From: Patescibacteria group bacterium
Lineage (GTDB): Bacteria; Patescibacteriota; Minisyncoccia; Minisyncoccales; Staskawiczbacteraceae
Assembly (NCBI GenBank): GCA_038065715.1
Contig: JBBTQL010000007.1
Span: forward strand, 49,643-113,642
DNA: 64,000 bases
Reading direction: 5' to 3'
The notes beneath the pieces were generated by a model, which worked only from the letters and a program-made list of their open reading frames with translations, was not told the DNA's origin and made no database searches. A program made the position numbers and the translations under genes. Of the stretch, positions 32,793 through 63,386 are shown one piece after another (position 1 is the first letter of the stretch; each line of letters opens with the position of its first letter).

Positions 32793-34571
32793 ATGAAATC
32801 TGACGAACTACGCCAACGATTTTTAAGTTTTTTTGAGAAAAGGGGGCATAAAATTATTCCCAGCGGTTCTTTAGTTCCAGAAAATGATCCAACGGTTTTA
32901 TTCACAACAGCTGGCATGCATCCTTTGGTGCCTTTTTTGTTAGGTGAAAAACATCCGTCTGGCAAAAGATTAGTTAACGCTCAAAAATGCATAAGGACAG
33001 GAGATATTGATGATGTTGGCGACGATACTCATAATACTTTTTTTGAAATGCTGGGAAATTGGTCTTTGGGCGATTATTGGAAAAATGAAGCCATAAAATG
33101 GAGTTTTGAATTTTTAACAAAAGAGCTGGAAATTCCTTTAGAAAGATTGGCTGTTTCTTGTTTCGCTGGTGATAACGATGCAGAAAAAGACGAAGAATCG
33201 GCAAAAATTTGGGAATCTTTGGGAGTTAAAAAAGAAAGAATTGCCTTTTTGCCAAAAGAAGATAATTGGTGGGGGCCTGCAGGAAAAACAGGACCATGTG
33301 GTACTGATACAGAAATGTTTTATTGGAAATTAAATGACAAACCAGCGCCAGAAATTTTTGACGCAAAAGATAAAAATTGGGTTGAAATTTGGAATGATGT
33401 TTTCATGCAATATATAAAAAATGAAAACGGGAATTACATTGAGGCAAAGCAAAAAAATGTAGATACTGGAATGGGTTTAGAAAGAACGCTTGCAGTTTTA
33501 AATGGAAAAGAAAACGTTTATGAAACTGATTTATTTTTGCCGATTATTAAAAAAATTGAGGAATTATCTGAAAAAAAATATGAGGATAATAAAAAGGCAT
33601 TCAGAGTTATTGTTGACCATATAAAGGCATCAGTGTTTCTTTTAGCTTCTGAAATTGAGCCGTCAAATTTAGGCAGGGGATACATTTTAAGAAGATTGAT
33701 TCGCAGGGCAATAAGATATGGAAAACAGTTGAGTATCAAAGAAAATTTTATTGGTGAAATTTATCCCGCAATTTTAGAAGTTTATAATGGATTTTACCCC
33801 GAAATAGAAAATAAAAAAGATTTTATTTTAGAGCAGTTTAAGTCAGAAGAAGAAAAATTTGAAAAAACTTTAGAAAACGGATTAAGGGAATTTATCTCGC
33901 TTTGCGAGAGCTCGCATAGCGAGATAAAATTAGACAATATATCTGGCAAGGATGCTTTTAATCTTTATCAAACTTATGGATTTCCGATTGAATTGACGGA
34001 AGAAATAGCAAAAGAAAAGGGAATGAATATTGATGTTGAGGAATTTAAAAAAGAATTAGAAAAACATCAGGAACTTTCAAGAACAGCGGGCGCGGGAATG
34101 TTTCGAGGCGGGTTGGCAGATAATTCTGAGCAAACTACAAAACTGCATACCGCCGCCCATTTAATGCTGGCTGGATTAAGAAAAGTTTTGGGCGGGCATG
34201 TTGCGCAAAAAGGAAGCAATATTACTGCCGAAAGATTGCGTTTTGATTTTTCGCACAAAGAAAAAATGACCAGTGAACAAATAAAAGGTGTAGAAAATTT
34301 TGTAAATGGTATAATAAAGAAAGACTTGCCTGTAAGCTTTGAAGAAATGAATTTAGAAAAAGCTAAAGAGCTAAACGCTATGGGAGTTTTTGAATCAAAA
34401 TACGGGGAAAAAGTTAAAGTTTATACTATTGGCGAGGGCAATGAAATTGCAAGCCGCGAAATTTGCGGCGGGCCGCATGTTGAGAAAACAGGAGTTTTAG
34501 GGCATTTTAAAATTATAAAAGAAGAAAGCTCCTCATTTGGAGTCCGTAGAATAAAAGCAATACTTGAGTAA
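32793..34571 (+). CDS. alaS: Alanyl-tRNA synthetase, short form (592 aa; no C-terminal C-Ala domain)
   Basis: FTTAGM..., GNWSLGDYWK, WWGPAG..GPCGTDTE, editing-domain HTAAHL...CGGPHV. In-frame palindrome at 33893-33926. Confidence 0.93.
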   Translation: MKSDELRQRFLSFFEKRGHKIIPSGSLVPENDPTVLFTTAGMHPLVPFLLGEKHPSGKRLVNAQKCIRTGDIDDVGDDTHNTFFEMLGNWSLGDYWKNEAIKWSFEFLTKELEIPLERLAVSCFAGDNDAEKDEESAKIWESLGVKKERIAFLPKEDNWWGPAGKTGPCGTDTEMFYWKLNDKPAPEIFDAKDKNWVEIWNDVFMQYIKNENGNYIEAKQKNVDTGMGLERTLAVLNGKENVYETDLFLPIIKKIEELSEKKYEDNKKAFRVIVDHIKASVFLLASEIEPSNLGRGYILRRLIRRAIRYGKQLSIKENFIGEIYPAILEVYNGFYPEIENKKDFILEQFKSEEEKFEKTLENGLREFISLCESSHSEIKLDNISGKDAFNLYQTYGFPIELTEEIAKEKGMNIDVEEFKKELEKHQELSRTAGAGMFRGGLADNSEQTTKLHTAAHLMLAGLRKVLGGHVAQKGSNITAERLRFDFSHKEKMTSEQIKGVENFVNGIIKKDLPVSFEEMNLEKAKELNAMGVFESKYGEKVKVYTIGEGNEIASREICGGPHVEKTGVLGHFKIIKEESSSFGVRRIKAILE

Positions 34572-44873: not shown

Positions 44874-45569
44874 ATGTTAAAAGAACTTATTGACGAGTTT
44901 TACGAGGAACAGCAAAAAAATAAAGAGCAGACCAAGTTTTATATTACAGACGCCGGCAAATGCCCGCGCGCTGTTTTTTTTAAATTTAAAAATGCGCCAA
45001 GAGAGCCAATGGATGCGCGTATTTTAAGAATTTTTGAGCACGGCGAACACATACACAGAAATATTTTTAATGTTTTGTATCGCCTTAGAATTGGGGTAAC
45101 AACAGAAATTTCAATTCCATCGCAAGAAATAATTTCTGGCAGAGCCGACGCAATTTTATGCATTAACAACGAAAATTATGTGTTAGACATTAAAAGTATG
45201 AACAGCATGATTTTCAGAAATTTAAATCAGCCAAAAGAAGAAAATATTTACCAGATTCAGCTTTACTTGCATTATTTTAACATTAAAAAAGGCATTCTGC
45301 TTTACATAGACAAAGACCAGCAAAACATTAAAGAGTTTGTTGTGGACTATGATGCAGAGCTTGTAAAAAGTTTGCTTGATAAATTTTACAGCTTAAAAAC
45401 CAAAGTAGAAGAAAATATTGTTCCAGAAAGAATGCAAGATTATCCAAAAAACTGGCAATGTCAGTATTGCCAATTTAAAGACATTTGCAAAACGGCAAAC
45501 GGCCAGGAAATGAAGTGGCAGGAGTTTAAAGATAAAATTGAGTCGCAAAACACCAATCAATCATCATAA
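44874..45569 (+). CDS. Stand-alone Cas4/RecB-like PD-(D/E)XK nuclease with 4-Cys cluster
   Basis: N-terminal Cys (DAGKCPRAVFF). Motif II GRADAIL. Motif III LDIKS. QxxxY (YQIQLYLHY). C-terminal CQYCQFKDIC. Confidence 0.7.
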   Translation: MLKELIDEFYEEQQKNKEQTKFYITDAGKCPRAVFFKFKNAPREPMDARILRIFEHGEHIHRNIFNVLYRLRIGVTTEISIPSQEIISGRADAILCINNENYVLDIKSMNSMIFRNLNQPKEENIYQIQLYLHYFNIKKGILLYIDKDQQNIKEFVVDYDAELVKSLLDKFYSLKTKVEENIVPERMQDYPKNWQCQYCQFKDICKTANGQEMKWQEFKDKIESQNTNQSS

Positions 45570-45601: not shown

Positions 45602-46735
45602 TTATTGAGTGATTTTTTCTGAAGAAAGGAGAGTGTTACCTGTCAATATATACAATTTTCCGTCAGATTGTTTAAAAAATATTTTAGGATTTTTGATTTC
45701 TAAGGAATTGCCGCTTGTTAAAGTTGCGGTTTGCGGCAGGGTAAACGTATTTATATTGCCCCTTTCGTCAATTTCTGAAATTACTATTTTATTTCCAAGG
45801 TTAAAAATTAAATAATTGTCGTTTAGCCAAAAGCTGTCGCCAATTTTTTCTGAAAATCTGTTTAAAAATATTTGGTCGGTTGGAGAATTGAGGTAAGAAA
45901 ATAGAATTTCATAATCGTTATAAAAAAGCAGTTTTTGCCCGTCCGGAGAAATTTTTAAATTATTTACCGGGCTATAAAAATTTTTAAAATCGTTTGTCGT
46001 TTTTGAAAAAAACAAAAGGCTATTATCATTTTTGAGAAAGATATTTTGCTGGACTGTTATTATTTTGTAAGTATTTTTTATATTTATACTTAGGGCAGTT
46101 TGGCTTAATTTTTGCGTATTGCCCCCGCTTTGGTCAGAGCTGTATAAAAAACCGTTGGCAGAAAGCCAAACTATATTGTTGTTTAATACTGTGCTTGCTA
46201 AAACATTTTTTAAAACGGGAATAGTTTTATCGGCTTTCGTTATATTATTATTTTCTGGCGCGTTAGAATAATACAAGTTGCCATTTTTAATAATATATTT
46301 TTCTTGTTCTTTTGGTTCAATAAAAGGGGATTGGGTTTTGTCTGTTAAAATTTCAAAAAGAATTTGTTCTTTAAATAAAACAACGTGTTCTAATTTTGCC
46401 ACTTCTTTCTCTTTTACATCCAAGGTTTTTTGGTATGAAAAATAGCCGTTTTTTTTTACCAAGACATTATGCGACTTTGGCAGAAGGTTTTGCATAAACA
46501 CAAACCCAGAAAGCATGTTTGTTTTTCCGGCAAGCTTTGAATTTATATAAATCTCGGCTGGCTCTGGCCAGACTTTAACATAAATGCCGCCTGTTGCCAC
46601 TAATTTTTTGTTTTCAAAATCAACCCTGTATCCAAGGGAATAGGCAACTATGTAGGGCGTTATGATAAAAAACAAAACAGCGCAGGTGATTAGTATTACA
46701 AAACGAGTTCTTTTCTGCATATATGTTTTAAGCAT
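45602..46735 (-). CDS. Membrane-anchored PEGA-domain protein with beta-rich C-terminal region
   Basis: N-terminal TM. VKVWPEPAEIYINSKLAGKT...HNVLVKKNGYFSYQKTLDV (PEGA-like). Confidence 0.55.
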   Translation of the reverse strand: MLKTYMQKRTRFVILITCAVLFFIITPYIVAYSLGYRVDFENKKLVATGGIYVKVWPEPAEIYINSKLAGKTNMLSGFVFMQNLLPKSHNVLVKKNGYFSYQKTLDVKEKEVAKLEHVVLFKEQILFEILTDKTQSPFIEPKEQEKYIIKNGNLYYSNAPENNNITKADKTIPVLKNVLASTVLNNNIVWLSANGFLYSSDQSGGNTQKLSQTALSINIKNTYKIITVQQNIFLKNDNSLLFFSKTTNDFKNFYSPVNNLKISPDGQKLLFYNDYEILFSYLNSPTDQIFLNRFSEKIGDSFWLNDNYLIFNLGNKIVISEIDERGNINTFTLPQTATLTSGNSLEIKNPKIFFKQSDGKLYILTGNTLLSSEKITQ

Positions 46736-47271: not shown

Positions 47272-47300
47272 TTGACAAAATTATATTATGGTGATATAAT
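47272..47300 (+). promoter_or_regulatory. Consensus promoter giving a probably leaderless mRNA
   Basis: TTGACA(47272-77)-17 nt-TATAAT(47295-300). ATG at 47308. Confidence 0.5.
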
Positions 47301-47307
47301 TAATTAT

Positions 47308-48063
47308 ATGAAAGGAGGTGAACAAATTTCTATAAATAACAGCTCAAAAGTGGGAGTTTTAATGCTCCACGGTTTTTCAAGCACTCCAAGGCAGTTTAAA
47401 GAATTGAGCGCCTTTTTATCTGAAAAAGGTTTTAATATATTGGCTCCGGTTATATCGGGACACGGAACTTCGCCAGAAGATATGATGAAAACTTCGCCAG
47501 AAGACTGGAAAAAATCAACAATGGATGCTTATTTAAAATTGAAAAATAGCTCTGAAAGCATCTTTGTTATTGGAAATTCTTTTGGCTCTAATCTGGCTTT
47601 ATGGCTGGCAAAAGAATTAAATGGCAATTTAGCTGGGGTTATTACTTTAGGCGCTCCTATTTTTTTAAGATTTCATAATTTTATTAAATTCAGGCTTTTT
47701 ACATACGGCAGATTTAAAAAATATTACAAAAAACCTTTGCGCGTTTATAAAGCCGATTACACAGACATGTTAGACGAAGTTTCGTATCCTGTTATTCCTG
47801 TTAAAAACTTAAACGAGTTTATTAATTTTTTAGAGCAGGAAACAACGCCGAATTTGCATAAAATAAAAACACCAATTTTAATAGCTTACGCCACGGTTGA
47901 TCCTGTTATACATCCAAAAAGCGCAAAATATATTTTTCAAAATATAGGCTCTGAAAAAAAAGAAATTTTTTGGTTTGACAGCAACAGGCACAGCATTTTG
48001 GGAAAAGGATGCGAAAATTTATTTTGTAAAATTTTTGAATTTATAAAAGAACAAAATGTATAA
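47308..48063 (+). CDS. Alpha/beta-hydrolase carboxylesterase
   Basis: LMLHGFSSTP, nucleophile elbow GNSFGS, C-terminal D/H region. Confidence 0.8.
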   Translation: MKGGEQISINNSSKVGVLMLHGFSSTPRQFKELSAFLSEKGFNILAPVISGHGTSPEDMMKTSPEDWKKSTMDAYLKLKNSSESIFVIGNSFGSNLALWLAKELNGNLAGVITLGAPIFLRFHNFIKFRLFTYGRFKKYYKKPLRVYKADYTDMLDEVSYPVIPVKNLNEFINFLEQETTPNLHKIKTPILIAYATVDPVIHPKSAKYIFQNIGSEKKEIFWFDSNRHSILGKGCENLFCKIFEFIKEQNV

Positions 48064-49819
48064 GGCAATTCCAGAAGTTTTTTTTGAAGTTGCGAAAAAA
48101 CATCCCAATAAACGCGCCCTTTTATACAAAAAGGAAGGAGTTTATTTTCCTATTACTTACAAAGAATTATCTAAAAAAATATCAATATTTAGCAAGGGGC
48201 TTTCAGATATTGGGGTTGGCAAGGGAGACAAGGTGGCAATTTTATCAGAGAACAGGCCAGAGTGGGTTATTTCAGATTTATCAATTATGGCCATTGGAGC
48301 TGTTGCTGTGCCTCTGCACACAACATTTAATCCAAAAGCTGTTTGCAGTGTTTTAAGGCATTGCCAAGCAAAAGTTCTTATTGTTTCAAATAGCGATCTT
48401 TTAAATAAAGCGTTATTGGGTCAAAAATATTTAAAAGACCTTAAAAAAATTATTTTCATAGAAAATTTAACTTCGGCCCAAAAAGAGATATTAAGCAACA
48501 AGGTTTTAAGCTGGAAAGCAATGATGGCTCAAAATCAAAAACTTTCCGCCCAAGGCGGACCAGCCTCGGGCTGGGAAAAAATATTTTTAGACCCAGACGA
48601 TTGCTGCTCAATTATTTACACTTCGGGCACCACAGGCAAGCCAAAAGGCGTGGTTTTAACCCATAGAAATTTTTTAAGCAATGTAGAGGCGGTTGCCGAA
48701 GTTGTTCCTGTAAATAGCAGCGATATTTTTTTGTCTTTTTTGCCTTTGTCGCATGTTTTAGAAAGAATGGCAGGTTACTATATGCCTTTGTGCCACGGGG
48801 CAACTATTGCATACGCAGAAGGCATAAAACAGCTTTCAGCCAATTTAAAAGAGGTGAAGCCTACAGTAATGATTTCTGTTCCGCGCGTCTTTGAAAAGTT
48901 CCACGATGCTATTTGGGACAAAGTTAATAGCTCGTCTAAGCTTCAAAAAAGAATTTTTAAATGGGCGCTAAAACAGAAAAAGGGGACGGTGGCATATAAA
49001 GTTGCAGATTTTTTAGCTTTCAAAAAAATACGCAATAAAATGGGAGGCAGGTTGCGCTTAACAATTTCCGGGGGAGCATCTTTAAATGAAAATATTGGCA
49101 GATTTTTTTCAAAAATTGGAATTTTAATATTAGAAGGTTATGGGTTAACAGAAACTTCGCCGGTTATTTCTGCAAATCAGGAATATGATTTTAAATTTGG
49201 AACTGTTGGTAAAATTATTCCCGGAGTAAAAGTTAAAATTACTGATACAAAAGAAATTTTAACAAAAGGCCCAAATGTTTTTCAGCAATATTTCAAAAAT
49301 AAAGAAGAAACAAAACTAAGTTTTGACAGAGAGGGCTGGTTTCATACGGGAGACTTGGGATTTATTGACAAGCAGGGTTTTTTAACAGTTATTGGCAGGG
49401 CAAAAGAAATGATTGTCACTTCTGGCGGCAAAAATGTGTGGCCAGAGCGCGTTGAAAATTTATTAAATAACGACCGTTTTATTTCTCAGGCAATAATAAT
49501 TGGAAACAATAGAAAATTTATTTCAGCTTTAATTGTTCCTGATTGGCAGGAAATTGAAATATATCTAAAAGAAAATAATCTGCCTTTGCAGGAGCACGAC
49601 AAGCTTATAAAAAGCCCTGTTCTTTTAGATGTTTTTCAAAAAAGAATAGACGAAAAAATAAATCCGAATATTCACGAATTTGAAAGAGTCAAAAAATTTA
49701 AATTGCTTCCGCAGGAATTTTCTCAAGACCAAGACGAGCTAACAGCCACTTTAAAACTGAGAAGGCGCATAATTGAAAATCACCATAAAAAGCAAATAGA
49801 CTCAATGTACGAAGACTAA
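48056..49819 (+). CDS. Long-chain fatty-acid--CoA ligase (AMP-forming)
   Basis: AMP-binding motif YTSGTTGKPKGV, GYGLTETS, TGDLG. In-frame double GC hairpin at 48545-48574. Confidence 0.9.
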   Translation: MYKAIPEVFFEVAKKHPNKRALLYKKEGVYFPITYKELSKKISIFSKGLSDIGVGKGDKVAILSENRPEWVISDLSIMAIGAVAVPLHTTFNPKAVCSVLRHCQAKVLIVSNSDLLNKALLGQKYLKDLKKIIFIENLTSAQKEILSNKVLSWKAMMAQNQKLSAQGGPASGWEKIFLDPDDCCSIIYTSGTTGKPKGVVLTHRNFLSNVEAVAEVVPVNSSDIFLSFLPLSHVLERMAGYYMPLCHGATIAYAEGIKQLSANLKEVKPTVMISVPRVFEKFHDAIWDKVNSSSKLQKRIFKWALKQKKGTVAYKVADFLAFKKIRNKMGGRLRLTISGGASLNENIGRFFSKIGILILEGYGLTETSPVISANQEYDFKFGTVGKIIPGVKVKITDTKEILTKGPNVFQQYFKNKEETKLSFDREGWFHTGDLGFIDKQGFLTVIGRAKEMIVTSGGKNVWPERVENLLNNDRFISQAIIIGNNRKFISALIVPDWQEIEIYLKENNLPLQEHDKLIKSPVLLDVFQKRIDEKINPNIHEFERVKKFKLLPQEFSQDQDELTATLKLRRRIIENHHKKQIDSMYED

Positions 49820-49910: not shown

Positions 49911-52900
49911 ATGAAAAATAAAAAAAATCAATTTTTCAAGGCTAAACTTTTTAGCCGATTCCTAACAAAATCAGCGAATAATTTTTTATTTAAGCCAACT
50001 ATAATAATGTTGGTTTTTTTGTTTGTTTTTCAGCCAATGGCGTCCGTGTTTGCGCAGGAAGCGCAGGAGGTAAACGTTATTGTTCCTGAAAGCCCTGTAA
50101 TAGGCGAGATAGGACAAATTCCCGCAATAAGCAATGTTGAGCCAACCCAGACTATTAGCCCTATAACAGAATTAAGTCCTAGTGAAATTCCTCTTGTTCT
50201 ATCGCCAGAGCCTCAAGCCCCAACTATAGAGAGCGTTCCTATCGATTCGCCATTAGAGCAAAATACAGAACAAAATGTTGCAGAAAAAGAGCCTGTAGCT
50301 GCTCAAGCATTAAATCAGAACGAAGAAAACAAACAGCCAAGTTCCAGTTTGCAATTAACTCAAAAATTGCCTGAAATAGATAAAAACACAGGCGCTTTAA
50401 CATATAATTATTCTATTGCTGTTCCGCCCGGCAGAAACGGTTTTCAGCCAGAAATTGGGTTGTCATATAACAGCAATTCAAATGAACAAAACAGCATTGC
50501 AGGATATGGCTGGACTATAAATATTCCATATATCAAGCGGTTAAATAAAGCGGGTTCTGACAAACTTTATACTTCAGGAGCCGCCAGTTATTTTTATTCT
50601 TCGCTTGACGGCGAGCTGACATCAGCTGGCGGAGTTTTATATGTTCCCAAAATAGAAAACGGCAATTTTAATAAATACACTTTTGAAAATAATCAATGGA
50701 TTGTTGTTTTTAAAAACGGCACACAATATAAATTTGGGTATAATGATAATTCAAAGCAAAACGACCCAGCCAATCCAGACAACGTTTATAAATGGATGCT
50801 GCAAGAAATAAGGGACACAAACGATAATTTTATTTCTTATGAGTATTTTAAAGACAGGGGGCAGATTTATCCTTTGTCAATAAAATATACTGGCAACGGC
50901 TCAACAGACGGCATTTTTGAGGCTGATTTTCAGAGAATTGACAGGACAGACAATTTTGCCAATTATTCAACTGGTTTTAGCGTAAAGTCTAATTATTTAA
51001 TAGGTGAAATTACAGCAAACATAAATAATGACTGGACAAATAAATATGTTTTGAATTACGAAAAAAGCCAAGACGCAAACAAATCTTTATTAAAATCAAT
51101 AACAACATCAGGCAAAAATAGTAGCGGAAATATTGTTTCTTTAGCGCCATCAAACTTTAGTTATCAAAATTCAACTGCTGGTTTCACGCCCTCAAACACT
51201 TCGTGGAATATTCCATCGCCCCCAGAAGGCGATTGGAATTTACTCACAAGATCTCCTCAATTTGCCGACCTTAACGGAGACGGTCTGCAAGACTTAGTAA
51301 TAGTTGCCCATATTCCAATTGTAATAGGAACTTATCACGGCTCTCGCCTACAAGATTATCAATATTTAAATACAGGCTCAGGCTGGCTGCAAACAACAGC
51401 ATGGAACTTTCCAGGTGTGCCAGACGGCGAATCTTTATGGCAATGGCCAACTATTCCGCCGATGTTCACCGACCTTAACGGAGATGGCTTAACAGACCTT
51501 GTTTTGGTTGCCAGCCACTATAATTATGGAAATATTTATAAAGACTATCAATATCTCAACACCGGAAACGGCTGGGCGCCAAATTTCACATGGCAGCTTC
51601 CAACTCTGCCAGAAGGAGAATGGAATTTTATTTCAATGCCTCCGCAATTTGTGGATCTCAACGGAGATGGCCTGCCAGACATTTCAGCTTTAACAAGAGT
51701 TACTTTTTATGAGGATAACCGTTCTTGGAGGGAAGACAGAAATTATCAATACCTCAACACCGGAAGCGGCTGGGCGCTGGTCTCCGCCTGGAAACTTCCA
51801 ACCCTGCCAGATGGCGAATCTATGTGGCAGTGGCCTACCATACCTCCGCAGTTTACAGACCTCAACGGAGACGGTTTAACAGACCTTGTTTTAGTTGCCA
51901 GCCACTATAATTACGGACATATTTATAAAGACTATGAATATCTCAACACAGGCTCTGGTTGGACGCCAAACTCCACATGGCAACTGCCAGAGGTGGGCTG
52001 GGATTTTATTTTAATGCCCCCGCGGTTTGTGGATCTTAATTCTGACAACCTGCCAGACATTGCAATAATAGTTCGCAGGTGTGTGGAAATTGATAACAGA
52101 ACTTCTTGCGAGTATAAAGACTATCAATATCTTAATAATGGTTCTGGCTGGACACAGATTCAAACGTGGAAATTTCCAGATGTGCCAGTCGGCGAAGATA
52201 CATGGCAATATCCAGGCAGGCCACCGATATTTACAGACCTTAATGGAGACGGTTTACCCGACCTTGTTTTAATTGCCAGGCACTATAATTATGGAAATTA
52301 CCCAAAAGACTATGAATATCTTAACGGCGGGTTAAAACAGGATTTGTTAAGCCAGATAAATTATCCGCAGGGCGGCAATACAAAAGTTGATTATAAGCCC
52401 TCAACTCAATATATAGACGACTCTGGGGTTTTGTTAAATAAATCACCATATCCTATATTTACTGTTTTACAAATTATAAACAGCGATGGCCAAGGCAGTG
52501 AAATAAAATTATCATATAGGTACGCGGGCTCGCATTATTACTACAACAACCCTTTTGACAGGGAATTTGCAGGATACGATTTGGTTGAGCAAACAGATTC
52601 TATGGGAAACACAGCCAAAACTTATTTTCATACAGCTAACGACAGCAATTCATCTGCCGGAGAATTTGAAGACAATTATTTTAAAATTGGCAAGCCGTAT
52701 AGAATAGAGCAGTATGACAACAATAATAAACTTTATCAAACAACAATAAATAAATGGGGAAGCGCTAATTTAGGAAGCAATGCCGGTTTTGTAAAACTGC
52801 TTCAAACAATAGAACAAAATTTTGACCCTGACTTAACTCATAAAGACAAGGCAGAAAGCTATGAATATGACAACAATAATGGGAATCAAACTCAAAAAAT

Positions 52901-55900
52901 AGAATGGGGCGAAGTTTTGGCAAATGATGACGGTAGTTTTTTAGATATTGGAAATGACAAGCGTATTGCTAATATTAGTTATGCTGTTGGCGGAATTTCC
53001 AATTTCCAATTTTCAATTTCCAATCAATTTATCAATGACCAAAACGGAACTAAAATTAAAGAAGCCAAATATTACTACGACGGCCTGCCGCTTGGCCAGT
53101 TAACCTTGGGAAATCAAACTAAACAGGAAAATTGGATAAAAAACACAGATTACGCCAGCTCTGAAAATTCATATAATAATTTTGGCCTGCTCACACAAAC
53201 AAAAGATGCAAATAACAATGCCACAAATTTTTCATACGAAGCAAATAATATTTATCCAGCCTCTGTTATAAATGCCAAAAATCAAACAACGCAATATGTT
53301 TATAATTACGCTATTGGTAAACCAGCTCAAATAACCAATGCCAACGGAAATATATTTAAAAACACTTATGACGGTTTTGGCAGAATTTTAAAAACAGAAC
53401 AGCCAGACCAAAATAACCCTTCAACATTAGTTGTAAAAACATCTTATGTTTACAACGACAGTCCCTTGGCTGTGAGCGTTCAGCAAACAGATTATTTAGA
53501 CGGCTCAAACTCTGTAAACAACTATAATTATTATGACGGTCTTTCAAGAACTATACAGACAAAAAAATCTGCTGAAAATAGCAACTTTGAAACAAAAGAT
53601 TATATTTATGATAATAGGGGAAATTTACAAAAAGAATCTTTGCCTTATTTCTCTCAAGGTTCGGCAAAAACAAGCTCAACTTCAGAAGCTAATCTTTTTG
53701 CAAACTATGTTTATGACGCTTTAAATAGAAAAACAAGTGTTATAAATGTAGTTGGAGCAACAAGCTATAACTATAAAAATTGGCAGGCAATAATTACAGA
53801 TGTTAATGGAAACAAAAAAGACTATATTTATGACGCTTACGGCAATTTAACGCAGGTTTTAGAGCATAATGGGCAAGACACTTATATAACTGCTTATACT
53901 TATGACGGAGCAGGGAATTTAATTTTAATTACAGATGCTTTGGGAAATGTCCGCAATTTTGTTTATGACGGTTTAGGCAGAAGATTATCTGCCCAAGATT
54001 TGCATAATCCTGCAGATTCGGTTTTTGGAACTTTTACTTATTCTTATGATAATGCAGGAAATCTAATTAGTTTAACCGACCCTAAAAACCAGACAATAAA
54101 TTATGCTTACGACGCTTTAAACAGAAAAATAACTGAAAATTATACAGGAAAAACTGGCATAGAAGTTATATTAAACTATGATTATTGTTTAAACGGCAAA
54201 GGTTTATTGTGCGACAGCGTTTCAACAAGTCAAACAGAGCAATATGAATATTCAGCCTTGGGAAATGTAATAAAGCAAACAAAAATTATTGGAGATAATA
54301 TTTTAACAACCCAATTTAATTATGACAGGCAAGGAAGTCAAATTTTTATTGCAAACCCAGACAGCTCGCAAGTTAAATATGATTTTAATTCAGCCGGCTT
54401 AATTGAAAAAGTGTGGCGAAAAGAATCTGGCGACGCAGCATTTACTGTTGTAGCCAGCAACCTTGATTATTCGCCAACAGAACAAATTGCCAGTATTTCT
54501 TTAGCAAACGGAGCTCAAACAACAAACACTTATGACGCAAACCAGCTTTACCGCTTAACCCGTAAATTATCTTATGCAAACAACGTTAATTTGCAGGATA
54601 TTTTTTACCAGTATGACAGCGTGGGCAATATAAAACAAACAACTGACAATTCAAATACAGCCGCCAAAAAAATAGTTTATTATAATTATGATAATTTATA
54701 CAGATTAATTTCGGCTGTGGCCAGCAATACGTCAGACAATCAAGATTATACTCAAAATTTTACTTATGACGCTTTAGGCAATATATTATCTCAAAAATTA
54801 AACGAAAAAACTCTTTCTTATAACTACGAAGGCAATTTAGATTTATCTTACGCAAACCCAGATGCGGCAACAAAAATTGTTGAAAGCGGAATTAAGCCAG
54901 TATTAATTATTTCAAATTTTGTTTCTTCGCCAGCAACAATTAAACCGGGGGAGCAAGCAGTTTTGTCGTGGGCTGTTTCAAACGGAACTCCAACAAGTTT
55001 AACCATAGATAACGGAATCGGCTCGGTTTTGGGCTTGAATTTTAAAATAGTAAATCCAACCGCAACAACAACTTACACAATAACAGCTGAAAACAGCAAC
55101 GGAACAACCACAAAATCAATTACTATAACAGTTGCCCAACAACAGGCCGCAATTTTCACAAAAACTTTGGGCAATATAATTGACTCAGCAATTCCTGCTG
55201 CCCCAGTTATTTCAACCTTTAAAGCCTCGCTAACCACTATAACTCAGGGAGGCTCAAGCTCTTTATCATGGACTTTGTCTGGCGGAGCTCCAGCAAGTTT
55301 AATAATAGATAACGGAGTAGGCAATGTTTTAGGAAAAACAAAAATTACTGTAAAGCCATTATTCACCACAACATACACAATAACCGCAACAAACAGCGCA
55401 GGCGAGGCAACTAAATCTGTAACAATAACTGTGAAGCCTCATTCTTTGGCTCCGGTAATTTCAAGTTTTACCGCAAACCCGACCTCTATTGAAAAAGGAA
55501 AATATGCAACCTTGTCGTGGAAGATTACAGGCTCAATTAAACCCACAAGTTTAACCATAAACAATGGCGTGGGTTCGGTTTTAAATACCACTTCAAAAAG
55601 AATTACACCTAATGCAACAGCCAGCTATACGCTTACCGCAACAAACAGATATGGCGCGGCGTTTAAAACCGTAAAAATAACTGTAAATGATGTACCGCCG
55701 CCTCCGCCTCCTCCTCCTCCGCCTCCACCGCCAGCAGAAGAAGCCCCAGTTATTAATTCTTTCACAGCTGACAATACAACAATTATTCAAGGACAATCTG
55801 CAATATTATCATGGACTTTGTCTGGCGGAACTGCTACAACCCTAAGTATAAACAACGGAGTTGGCAGTGTTTTAGGAAAAACAAGCGTTATTGTAAATCC

Positions 55901-62408: not shown

Positions 62409-63386
62409 ATGGCAAGCAAAAAATTAAAATTTATTGATTTTTGCGCTGGTATTGGCGGGGGACGTTTGGGTTTGGAAAATTTAGGCATGAAGTGTGTCGG
62501 TTTTTCGGAGATTGATAAGTACTCGGAATACACATATAGGATGTTTTTTGGTAACGAAGAAAAAAATTATGGCAACTTAATGAGGATAGATCCAAAAAAT
62601 TTACCCGATTTTGATTTAATGATTGCTGGTTTTCCGTGTCAGACTTTTTCAGTAGCCGGAAAAAGAAAAGGGATGGAGGATAAAAGGGGGCAAATAATTT
62701 ATGGTTTAATTAAAATAATGAAAGAGAAAAACTTGCCATTTTTCATTTTAGAAAATGTAAAAGGATTGGTTAATCATGATGGCGGAGACACATTGAAAAC
62801 AATTTTAAAAGAACTAGACGAGGCTGGATATAAAGTTTACAGCGAAGTGTTGAACAGTTTGAATCTAGGAGTTCCGCAAATGCGAGAAAGAATTTATTTT
62901 GTAGGTATAAGAAAAGATTTAGTTTCTAAAAATACAGAGTTTCAATGGCCCATGCCCATCAAAACCCCAGACGTAGAGGAATATTTGATAGATAATAAGG
63001 AATTAGAATTTACTGAAAAACAAAAAGCTTATGAAACATTTCTGAGATTTTTAGACAATAAATACAATAAAGGATTATTTAAAATAGAAAGTTTGCTAAA
63101 AGACGACTATTTAGTTTTAGACACTCGTCAATCAGATCTAAGATTATATAAAAGAAAAGTTCCCACATTGAGGACCGGAAGACACGGTATTTTGTATGTT
63201 AAAAATAAAAAATTTAGAAAGTTATCCGGTTTTGAATCTCTGCTTTTGCAGGGATTTCCCAAAGAATTATCCCAAAAGACTAATAGAAAAATAGCTGATA
63301 TTTATTTGCTGAGCCAAGCGGGTAATGCAATGACTGTTAGCGCCATAGAGTCAGTTGGTAAAGAATTAATAAATTATATTTCATAG
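62409..63386 (+). CDS. DNA (cytosine-5) methyltransferase
   Basis: Motif I FCAGIGG, motif IV GFPCQTFS, ENVKGL, QAGNAMTV. Confidence 0.93.
   Translation: MASKKLKFIDFCAGIGGGRLGLENLGMKCVGFSEIDKYSEYTYRMFFGNEEKNYGNLMRIDPKNLPDFDLMIAGFPCQTFSVAGKRKGMEDKRGQIIYGLIKIMKEKNLPFFILENVKGLVNHDGGDTLKTILKELDEAGYKVYSEVLNSLNLGVPQMRERIYFVGIRKDLVSKNTEFQWPMPIKTPDVEEYLIDNKELEFTEKQKAYETFLRFLDNKYNKGLFKIESLLKDDYLVLDTRQSDLRLYKRKVPTLRTGRHGILYVKNKKFRKLSGFESLLLQGFPKELSQKTNRKIADIYLLSQAGNAMTVSAIESVGKELINYIS

Follow-up and report, generated by a model that had tools for sequence, protein, structure and literature searches.

A probable polymorphic toxin of the signal-peptide/SpvB/beta-propeller/RHS class with a predicted lipase-like tip in a groundwater Patescibacteria genome

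The B and C components of the toxin complex (Tc) toxins, such as TcdB2-TccC3 and TcdB1-TccC2 of Photorhabdus and YenB-YenC2 of Yersinia, are laid out in the order SpvB, six-bladed FG-GAP propeller, TcdB mid region, RHS shell, core and cargo. A "TcdB/TcaC" class of polymorphic toxins was described by Zhang, de Souza, Anantharaman, Iyer & Aravind in 2012, in which a signal peptide, SpvB with an integrin-like beta-propeller, RHS repeats and a polymorphic C-terminal toxin occur together with immunity genes (PMC3482391). In this work we analysed a gene of 2712 aa with the same domain order as the Tc proteins (49911..58049, plus strand, as is the whole toxin locus described below), located in a stretch of 64,000 nucleotides, here called the window, of the Patescibacteria contig JBBTQL010000007.1 (assembly GCA_038065715.1, positions 49,643 to 113,642). 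The protein fits the definition of the TcdB/TcaC class, whose 2012 phyletic list predates the genomes of the candidate phyla radiation (CPR), and we consider it probable that the locus is a polymorphic toxin of the signal-peptide/SpvB/beta-propeller/RHS class in a groundwater Patescibacteria (CPR) genome. Polymorphic toxins of the SpvB-propeller-RHS kind, with their immunity genes and orphan cassettes, have been a defined group since 2012, and the finding is mostly confirmatory; the locus does provide an example, fully dissected by computation, of a TcA-independent and predicted Sec-exported BC cocoon. With respect to the 2012 class it adds an immunoglobulin (Ig)-like insertion, as well as a tip (CT1) and partner (I1) whose families can be named by Pfam, NCBIfam and PDB only as "alpha/beta hydrolase".

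The 8.1-kb open reading frame (ORF) starts with ATG, is about three times as long as the next largest ORF in the window and is real, as proposed in the original prediction, which a model had made from the bare sequence. By ORF analysis, Pfam, NCBIfam and profile matching it encodes in succession SpvB, an FG-GAP propeller, an RHS cocoon, an Ig array, an Rhs core and a hydrolase tip. A hidden Markov model check of the SpvB motif, FG-GAP blades and RHS repeats named in that prediction returned significant Pfam matches for all three: SpvB with an E-value of 1.5e-13, FG-GAP together with FG-GAP_3, and RHS_repeat with 4.5e-30, to which are added TcdB_toxin_midN at aa 774-909 and TIGR01643 in NCBIfam. 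A Pro/Glu/Ser-rich low-complexity linker (aa 49-150; 50055..50360), which is disordered in the structural model described below (the first 20 modelled residues have a predicted local distance difference test score, pLDDT, below 30), leads into the SpvB/TcB N-terminal shell domain (aa ~151-440; 50361..51230), the six-bladed FG-GAP beta-propeller (aa ~441-830; 51231..52400) and the TcdB mid-N region with the RHS/YD repeats of the shell wall (aa 831-1665; 52401..54905). The propeller had been credited with eight blades, but six exact F.DLN.D.L.D motifs are present (aa 451, 519, 580, 648, 706 and 774) and the model has six blades of four strands each. In place of the dozens of YD..GN repeats that had been noted there are about 24 YD dipeptides, six of which fit the strict pattern YxYDxxG[NR].

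Both profile and fold comparison point to the Tc proteins. When a family profile built from the toxin protein and 29 relatives was searched against the PDB, the best match was to TcdB2-TccC3 fusions (E 3e-60), with profile positions 334-840 colinear with residues 337-801 of YenB/TcdB1 and positions 1400-1807 colinear with TccC/YenC. An AlphaFold2 model of aa 130-1329, made from 63 sequences, reached a mean pLDDT of 89.1 and a predicted template modelling (TM) score of 0.88. Its top 13 PDB matches in Foldseek are all TcB subunits (TcdB1, TcdB2, YenB) with TM-scores of 0.69-0.76 and E-values down to 1.7e-53, and the SpvB N-domain structure 6P0X was also matched; the next fold classes, which are mosquito SGS1, Rhs proteins of type VI secretion systems (T6SS), teneurins and bacterial teneurin-like proteins, score 0.25 or less. 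Because only TcB subunits score 0.69-0.76, the cap and the first half of the shell are TcB-like and not T6SS-Rhs-like or teneurin-like. The TcB fold of the N-terminal half is in this way shown by the model, at the level of computation, and on the evidence of its sequence the protein is a single-chain TcB-TcC-type RHS cocoon, in agreement with what had been proposed.

The Tc BC cocoons are the best profile match and the only good fold match of this protein, and both have an Rhs core with two catalytic Asp. They differ from it in being encoded by two genes instead of making up one polypeptide. A TcB/TcC shell has about 2,150 aa, and the shell here is shorter at ~1,740 aa; it also bears an Ig-like insertion of 617 aa in the TcC-equivalent part. 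The T6SS Rhs effectors (RhsA 7Q97, RhsP 8H8A, Tse5, Tse15, Tre23) share the RHS shell, core, DPxGL autoproteolysis, polymorphic tips, immunity and orphan cassettes, and in sequence searches the RHS and core regions match them at E-values of ~1e-21 to 1e-18, but SpvB and a propeller cap take the place of the PAAR/VgrG N-terminal domain or similar plug and the TM-score does not exceed 0.25. No Pfam or NCBIfam match to VgrG or PAAR was obtained in the window and no T6SS-sized genes are among its ORFs, which agrees with the original prediction, and a T6SS effector was rejected for lack of PAAR or VgrG. The bacterial teneurin-like proteins (9IFO, 9PT5) are likewise Sec-exported, autonomous YD-shell toxins with polymorphic C-termini and immunity genes (PMC13018210). 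They are composed of an FN-plug, an NHL propeller and a YD shell, whereas this protein has SpvB and an FG-GAP propeller; Pfam found no NHL or FN-plug domain in it, its model has a TM-score of 0.12 to 9IFO, only aa 2286-2495 match 9PT5/9IFO by sequence, and a teneurin-like protein was rejected on the grounds of the wrong propeller and cap and the TM-score. Bacillus subtilis WapA is a Sec-exported Rhs-type toxin of a monoderm that depends on neither T6SS nor TcA. In its signal peptide, RHS toxin, polymorphic tip and adjacent immunity gene it resembles the protein described here; at its N-terminus WapA has wall-binding repeats, and it is not known to have the SpvB/propeller cap.

The N-terminal hydrophobic segment noted in the original prediction lies at aa 22-40 by hydropathy and is the h-region of a Sec-type signal peptide (aa 1-48; 49911..50054) that had gone unrecognised, as had the Ig array and the downstream orphan cassettes. 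A long n-region precedes it and the sequence ..FQPMASVFA|QE follows, with a predicted cleavage site at VFA|QE and the motif ..PVFAQ.. kept in relatives. Cleavage at this site and Sec export are thus suggested by sequence, hydropathy and conservation. The export route had been called unknown; given the conserved Sec-type signal peptide and the presence of a SecY gene within the window, the route across the membrane is not mysterious. At the other end of the shell, the last YD repeats and the Rhs core, a putative aspartyl autoprotease, occupy 56757..57383. The core model Rhs_assc_core (TIGR03696) matches at aa 2402-2491 with an E-value of 1.2e-17, and the core has the ending that had been quoted, NNPIIGSDPTGL. 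Core residues R2442, D2455, D2487 and G2490 align with an Arg, D651, D674 and G677 of TccC3 and are invariant in 30 relatives, which bears out the autoproteolysis motif. The roles of the catalytic residues of TccC3, including D651 and D674, have been described (PMC7861908), and by analogy cleavage is predicted at L2491|I2492 (L2491 codon at 57381-57383).

The tip left by such a cut, CT1, would have 221 aa (aa 2492-2712; 57384..58046) and, from Pfam, conserved columns, AlphaFold2 and Foldseek, appears to be a LipA-like minimal alpha/beta hydrolase, as the lipase-like label given to it had implied. Scanned alone it scores 24.1 bits with Pfam Abhydrolase_8, against a cut-off of 20.5 bits. Its nucleophile elbow is the VVCHSHGCNV already noted, and conserved columns give the triad S2576 (57636-57638), D2626 (57786-57788) and H2692 (57984-57986); the S-H-G elbow and the triad (S85/D135/H201 in tip numbering) are invariant in six homologous tips. 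The top Foldseek matches of the AlphaFold2 model of CT1 are to Bacillus LipA (E 1e-5, TM-score 0.44-0.55), and a sequence search of CT1 against the PDB gave chance matches only. Bacillus subtilis/pumilus lipase A (1I6W, 7R1K) is comparable to the tip only: it too is a minimal alpha/beta hydrolase with x-H-S-x-G and Ser-Asp-His at similar spacing, from which CT1 differs by having 17-19% identity, a Gly-rich hydrophobic insertion of ~45 aa between Asp and His, and a predicted role as toxin cargo and not as free enzyme. Hydropathy places the Gly-rich hydrophobic segment at aa 2640-2658, the only transmembrane-like stretch of the whole protein besides the signal peptide, and this would suit an interfacial or membrane-directed enzyme. 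Computation of fold and triad shows CT1 to be a lipase-like Ser-Asp-His hydrolase, for which lipolytic activity is predicted.

The stop codon of the toxin ORF is separated from the next ORF by 3 nt (taa-aat-ATG), the spacing that had been reported. The product of this ORF, I1, is a putative cognate immunity protein of 263 aa (58053..58844) with one N-terminal transmembrane helix (aa 5-23) and a remainder of ~235 aa predicted by hydropathy to lie outside the membrane; its family is small, with 20 clusters. In two loci on unrelated metagenome contigs, L006 (CT1 homolog 57% identical, I1 homolog 51%) and L009 (46% and 43%), the I1 homolog starts within a few bases after the CT1 homolog. This co-variation is the pattern of a toxin-immunity pair; I1 behaves as the putative cognate partner of CT1, as had been suspected for the downstream gene, and neutralisation is predicted. 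Some I1 relatives (P0129, P0131) carry an S-x-D-x-G-x-T-W (Asp-box/BNR-like) motif, and there are hints in the sequence that the extracytoplasmic domain of I1 is a beta-propeller or beta-sandwich. Locus L009 also holds, at 122-1078, a 318-aa gene (P0124) with an Rhs core fragment and a CT1-like tip behind a signal-peptide-like N-terminus, MKKVIVLTAVFTILFSVSMVSDAYA, which may have arisen from an orphan cassette that became a secreted toxin in its own right; the immunity gene of P0124 is followed by a second CT1-like orphan, in which there is a GGISHGG motif.

Behind I1 lies an array of further cassettes. The first is an orphan module (58893..60050) consisting of a 5'-truncated rhs core fragment (TIGR03696, E 2e-20) and an alternative tip, CT2; its reading frame has no stop from 58893 onward, the earliest start available to it is a GTG at 59124, and the core has 73% nucleotide identity to the main core at 56963-57360. 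Two full-length relatives, P0003 and P0008, have CT2 as their main tip, and the orphan module is 68% identical to the C-terminus of P0003. It is followed by I2, a 98-aa protein with three transmembrane segments (60056..60352), which recurrence of the pair and hydropathy suggest to be the CT2 immunity protein: the CT2-I2 pair is found again in L006 with 82% (CT2) and 76% (I2) identity. Next comes I3a, a 109-aa transmembrane protein (60373..60702) which appears to be an orphan immunity gene paralogous to I3b, with 71% nucleotide identity to 61435-61599 and a C-terminus shared with I3b, ..FFFNLLTNCPGIK. A remnant of a third tip type, CT3, amounting to its last ~100 aa (60957..61271), shares 66% identity with the C-terminal end of P0006 and has further matches to the tips of P0001 and P0012, and directly after it comes I3b, a 107-aa transmembrane protein (61273..61596) that is putatively the CT3 immunity protein by its position, its paralogy to I3a and hydropathy. 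Pfam and NCBIfam searches gave no match for CT2, the CT3 remnant, I1, I2 or I3. Besides the new tip/immunity pair CT1/I1 the locus thus offers two further candidate pairs, and as read from its sequence it is the classic Rhs layout of a main gene with displaced tips. Extra downstream cores were also present in 17 of 79 related genome loci, which had been kept from a scan of species-representative genomes for neighbourhood study. Relatives with 40-59% identity carry unrelated tips behind the conserved body, and the tips seen among relatives include HNH, RNase, EndoU, peptidase and unnamed types. In the locus of P0005, itself with a CT1-type tip, an orphan module with a complete CT3-type tip is followed by a 138-aa multi-transmembrane protein (L002, 7885-9268); these three tip types are therefore in circulation across related loci.

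A second variable site was found in the wall of the shell. Between the RHS repeats and the core is inserted an Ig array of 617 aa (aa 1666-2282; 54906..56756), recognised from Pfam, repeat comparison and relatives, and composed of six Ig-like repeats of ~80 aa (46-68% aa identity), one Big_2 domain (aa 2108-2192, Pfam match 2111-2184) and a linker of 13 Pro (55695-55733). When the flanks of the insertion site were projected on 119 relatives they were contiguous in 84, while the other 35 had 97-695 aa inserted at exactly the same position, ~200 aa ahead of the cleavage site. The inserted modules are mutually unrelated and of extracellular binding type, ranging over DUF2341 with LamG, DUF5648 repeats, He_PIG/Big_9/PKD, Kre9-like Ig, Ig arrays and unnamed sequences. 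In the literature searched, a search that was not exhaustive, no description of an insertion hot spot in the shell was found. The lumen cannot hold both the cargo and a seven-domain arm of 617 aa, and the Ig arm is therefore presumably displayed outside, where it would bind targets. Recent tandem duplication of the Ig repeats was rejected, identities being just 46-68% in protein and 55-70% in DNA, and so was a slippage-prone poly-Pro tract, whose codons are mixed.

The distribution of the family was addressed by protein search and by the scan of one genome per species. The former gave at least 654 clusters at E<=1e-10, of which the named ones are mostly from Patescibacteria, including Nealson-, Staskawicz-, Falkow-, Ryan- and Paceibacteria, and the latter at least 477 relatives, most of them from Patescibacteria of many classes. 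Patescibacteria labels among the 79 loci comprise Wolfe-, Doudna-, Uhr-, Magasanik-, Kaiser-, Lipton-, Gracili-, Peri- and Saccharibacteria; outside this group were some Acidobacteriota, Bacteroidota (including the cultured Aquimarina hainanensis), Proteobacteria and Ca. Methanoperedens. The coding investment had been judged unusual for a reduced genome, but the gene is no anomaly there because hundreds occur in public genomes of Patescibacteria. CPR bacteria commonly spend 0.5-1% of a ~1-Mb genome on such weapons, which we did not find discussed in the literature searched, and no paper describing the SpvB-propeller-RHS family in CPR was found in the literature on CPR/Patescibacteria and Hainich. 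That the genome itself is of CPR type, as had been supposed, follows from its ribosomal protein genes, as well as from nearest relatives that are Patescibacteria. S5 placed directly before L15 without L30 is a CPR hallmark, and in the window S5 is followed by L15 after 60 nt with no L30 gene (27171-28274); the CPR inference therefore holds.

Computational comparison at the sequence level establishes the cassette structure, the tip-immunity pairing and the distribution of the family, and an immunity gene together with an orphan tip/immunity array is the signature of ordinary interbacterial polymorphic-toxin systems. In the mechanism that we propose, the precursor would be exported by Sec and its signal peptide removed, after which aa ~150-1665 and 2283-2491 would fold into a closed TcB-TcC-like cocoon with the six-bladed propeller shutting one end. 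The aspartyl-protease core (R2442/D2455/D2487) would cut after L2491 and leave the 221-aa tip loose inside, while the seven-domain Ig arm would point outward from the shell wall and bind target-cell surfaces. Upon some trigger, and without a TcA injector, the tip would be released and attack ester bonds in the membrane or envelope of the target; membrane-anchored, outward-facing I1 would protect the producer, and the orphan cassettes may give immunity to other tips and serve as substrates for tip switching via recombination in the conserved core. We infer the encapsulation of the tip, the lipid or envelope target, the action of I1 on the outer side of the membrane and tip switching at an 80-bp repeat described below.

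Several points weigh against this interpretation. The model of CT1 is moderate, with a mean pLDDT of 64.8 (80-92 in the core, below 50 at tip residues 133-181), and its TM-scores to LipA are just 0.44-0.55. Two distant CT1-type tips, P0005 (40% identity) and P0027 (32%), precede an unrelated ~95-aa protein with three transmembrane segments, which rules out I1-type immunity as the universal partner of CT1-like tips; immunity for such tips is therefore not one single family. In the public record a scaffold gap interrupts the connection of gene body and tip, and the search for TcA covered the window and 79 neighbourhoods. Closure of the whole shell (~1,740 aa) is deduced, with the model covering aa 130-1329, as is the outward position of the Ig array, and the toxicity, lipase activity, autoproteolysis and immunity are likewise predictions. 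The tip would have to exit from a cocoon without TcA, a problem shared with the bacterial teneurin-like proteins, for which neither a delivery machine nor a release mechanism is known (PMC13018210). A broader and more tentative idea, possible but speculative at present, is that TcA-less BC cocoons work on their own as retargetable delivery particles of ultra-small monoderm bacteria and are polymorphic at two sites, a C-terminal warhead and a site for binding modules in the shell wall, and that the lipase tip together with a FadD-like ligase perhaps serves lipid scavenging from host cells. A shell hot spot for binding modules could matter for the engineering of Tc/RHS cocoons as delivery vehicles, and follow-up is merited by this hot spot and by how abundant the family is in CPR.

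Among the alternatives, a host-interaction or nutrient device of an episymbiont survives best, although we regard it as unlikely: the Ig arm would attach to the host, the lipase tip would free fatty acids and the FadD-like ligase would activate them. Directly upstream of the toxin gene and on the same strand are an S33-type alpha/beta hydrolase (47272-48063) and a FadD-like long-chain acyl-CoA ligase (48056-49819), which are suggestive of a lipid-scavenging CPR cell, and CPR bacteria generally lack lipid synthesis; the CPR context, the lipase-like tip and the adhesin-like Ig array fit with such a device as well. However, L001, L002 and L006 do not share the two upstream genes, so that the linkage is probably coincidental, the tip is one interchangeable cassette among the many carried by relatives, and the immunity and orphan arrays indicate a susceptible producer and kin, a hallmark of competition. 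The host device and the polymorphic toxin are compatible and do not exclude each other.

It is much less probable that the protein is the BC part of a tripartite Tc (ABC) toxin, in which a TcA pentamer encoded elsewhere would dock on the propeller and inject the tip into eukaryotic or bacterial cells. The N-terminal half does match TcB structurally, including the propeller, which in Photorhabdus is the TcA binder, natural tcB-tcC fusion genes exist (PMC7861908) and the visible part of the genome is only 64 kb. In this window, however, no TcA was found, as originally stated, the largest other ORF being an 873-aa P-type ATPase, and across the 79 related loci no large neighbour recurs within 10 kb on either side and none of the six largest unrelated neighbours carries a TcA Pfam domain. 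This protein further differs from the Tc BC cocoons by its own Sec signal peptide and by an immunity gene and orphan tip array of the sort typical of interbacterial toxins, and its relatives reside in CPR genomes of ~1 Mb.

Slightly more remote again is that the ORF is partly a product of assembly, the real gene body joining CT2 with CT1-I1 absent or elsewhere, be it in the genome or in part of the population. Apart from one gap, the window has 100% identity to ENA ERZ1292629 contig Hain_H43_01um_R1_36_length_123360_cov_16, whose name points to Hainich groundwater, well H43, 0.1-um fraction. In that contig codon 2391 is interrupted by 100 N, placed between window bases 57081 and 57082 and within the first copy (57057..57136) of an 80-bp exact repeat; the first copy is in the main core and the second, identical to it, in the orphan core (59109..59188). 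The repeat is also a break point in two independent Logan assemblies. Public gene calling gives only the last 313 aa of the toxin (P0121), and exact-sequence look-ups of the full 2712-aa protein and of EF-Tu returned no match. Against an artefact, the reading frame and colinearity with homologs are kept across the join, with P0004 having the identical ...LNSSSVMTDSAGAIAETMDYFPFGEIRLD, and either join would still yield the same kind of protein. An independent Logan contig spans exactly from repeat copy 1 to copy 2 (window 57107-59138), and since Logan contig L004 links CT1-I1 to the left flank of the orphan, the order of the window is the only single-chromosome arrangement that uses all pieces. 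The in-frame reading across the join, its colinearity with homologs and the Logan contig from copy 1 to copy 2 make it parsimonious to take the window's order of gene body, CT1-I1 and orphan as correct, pending read-level confirmation. The 80-bp exact repeat sits within core regions that are otherwise 73% identical, three independent assemblies break there, and it could be due to recent gene conversion or active tip switching.

That the protein is a non-toxic surface adhesion or signalling protein like the teneurins, with a vestigial tip, is just as improbable in spite of the large Ig array and of the adhesion receptors included in the YD-shell superfamily (PMC13018210), given that the catalytic triad is invariant in six tips and the autoprotease residues likewise, that tip-immunity pairs co-vary, and that fold matches to teneurins and teneurin-like proteins have TM-scores of 0.15 or less with no FN-plug/NHL.

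Returning to the polymorphic toxin and its surroundings, the toxin gene (50001-58000) has a G+C content of 0.35-0.42 as against ~0.34, and its GC skew is negative while that of the rest of the window is positive; the shift may come from its Thr/Asn/Tyr/Gly-rich amino-acid composition or from a foreign origin. Further upstream are a Cas4-like PD-(D/E)XK nuclease (44874-45569) and, on the minus strand, a PEGA-domain protein (45602-46735). Bacterial alanyl-tRNA synthetase is usually ~870 aa long; the one encoded at 32793-34571 has only 592 aa, made up of the catalytic domain and the SAD domain. No tRNA genes were found in the window as marks of an integration site. After the toxin array (window 61714-63386; L003 15302-18040) come a LexA-like repressor, a C5 DNA methylase, R.HinP1I and Vsr, and later a PIF1-type helicase, and on three other metagenome contigs (L006-L008, 1594-3405) the methylase and R.HinP1I pair lies between the CT1-I1 module and the CT2 orphan. 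These positions suggest a restriction-modification system that moves together with the rhs cassettes.

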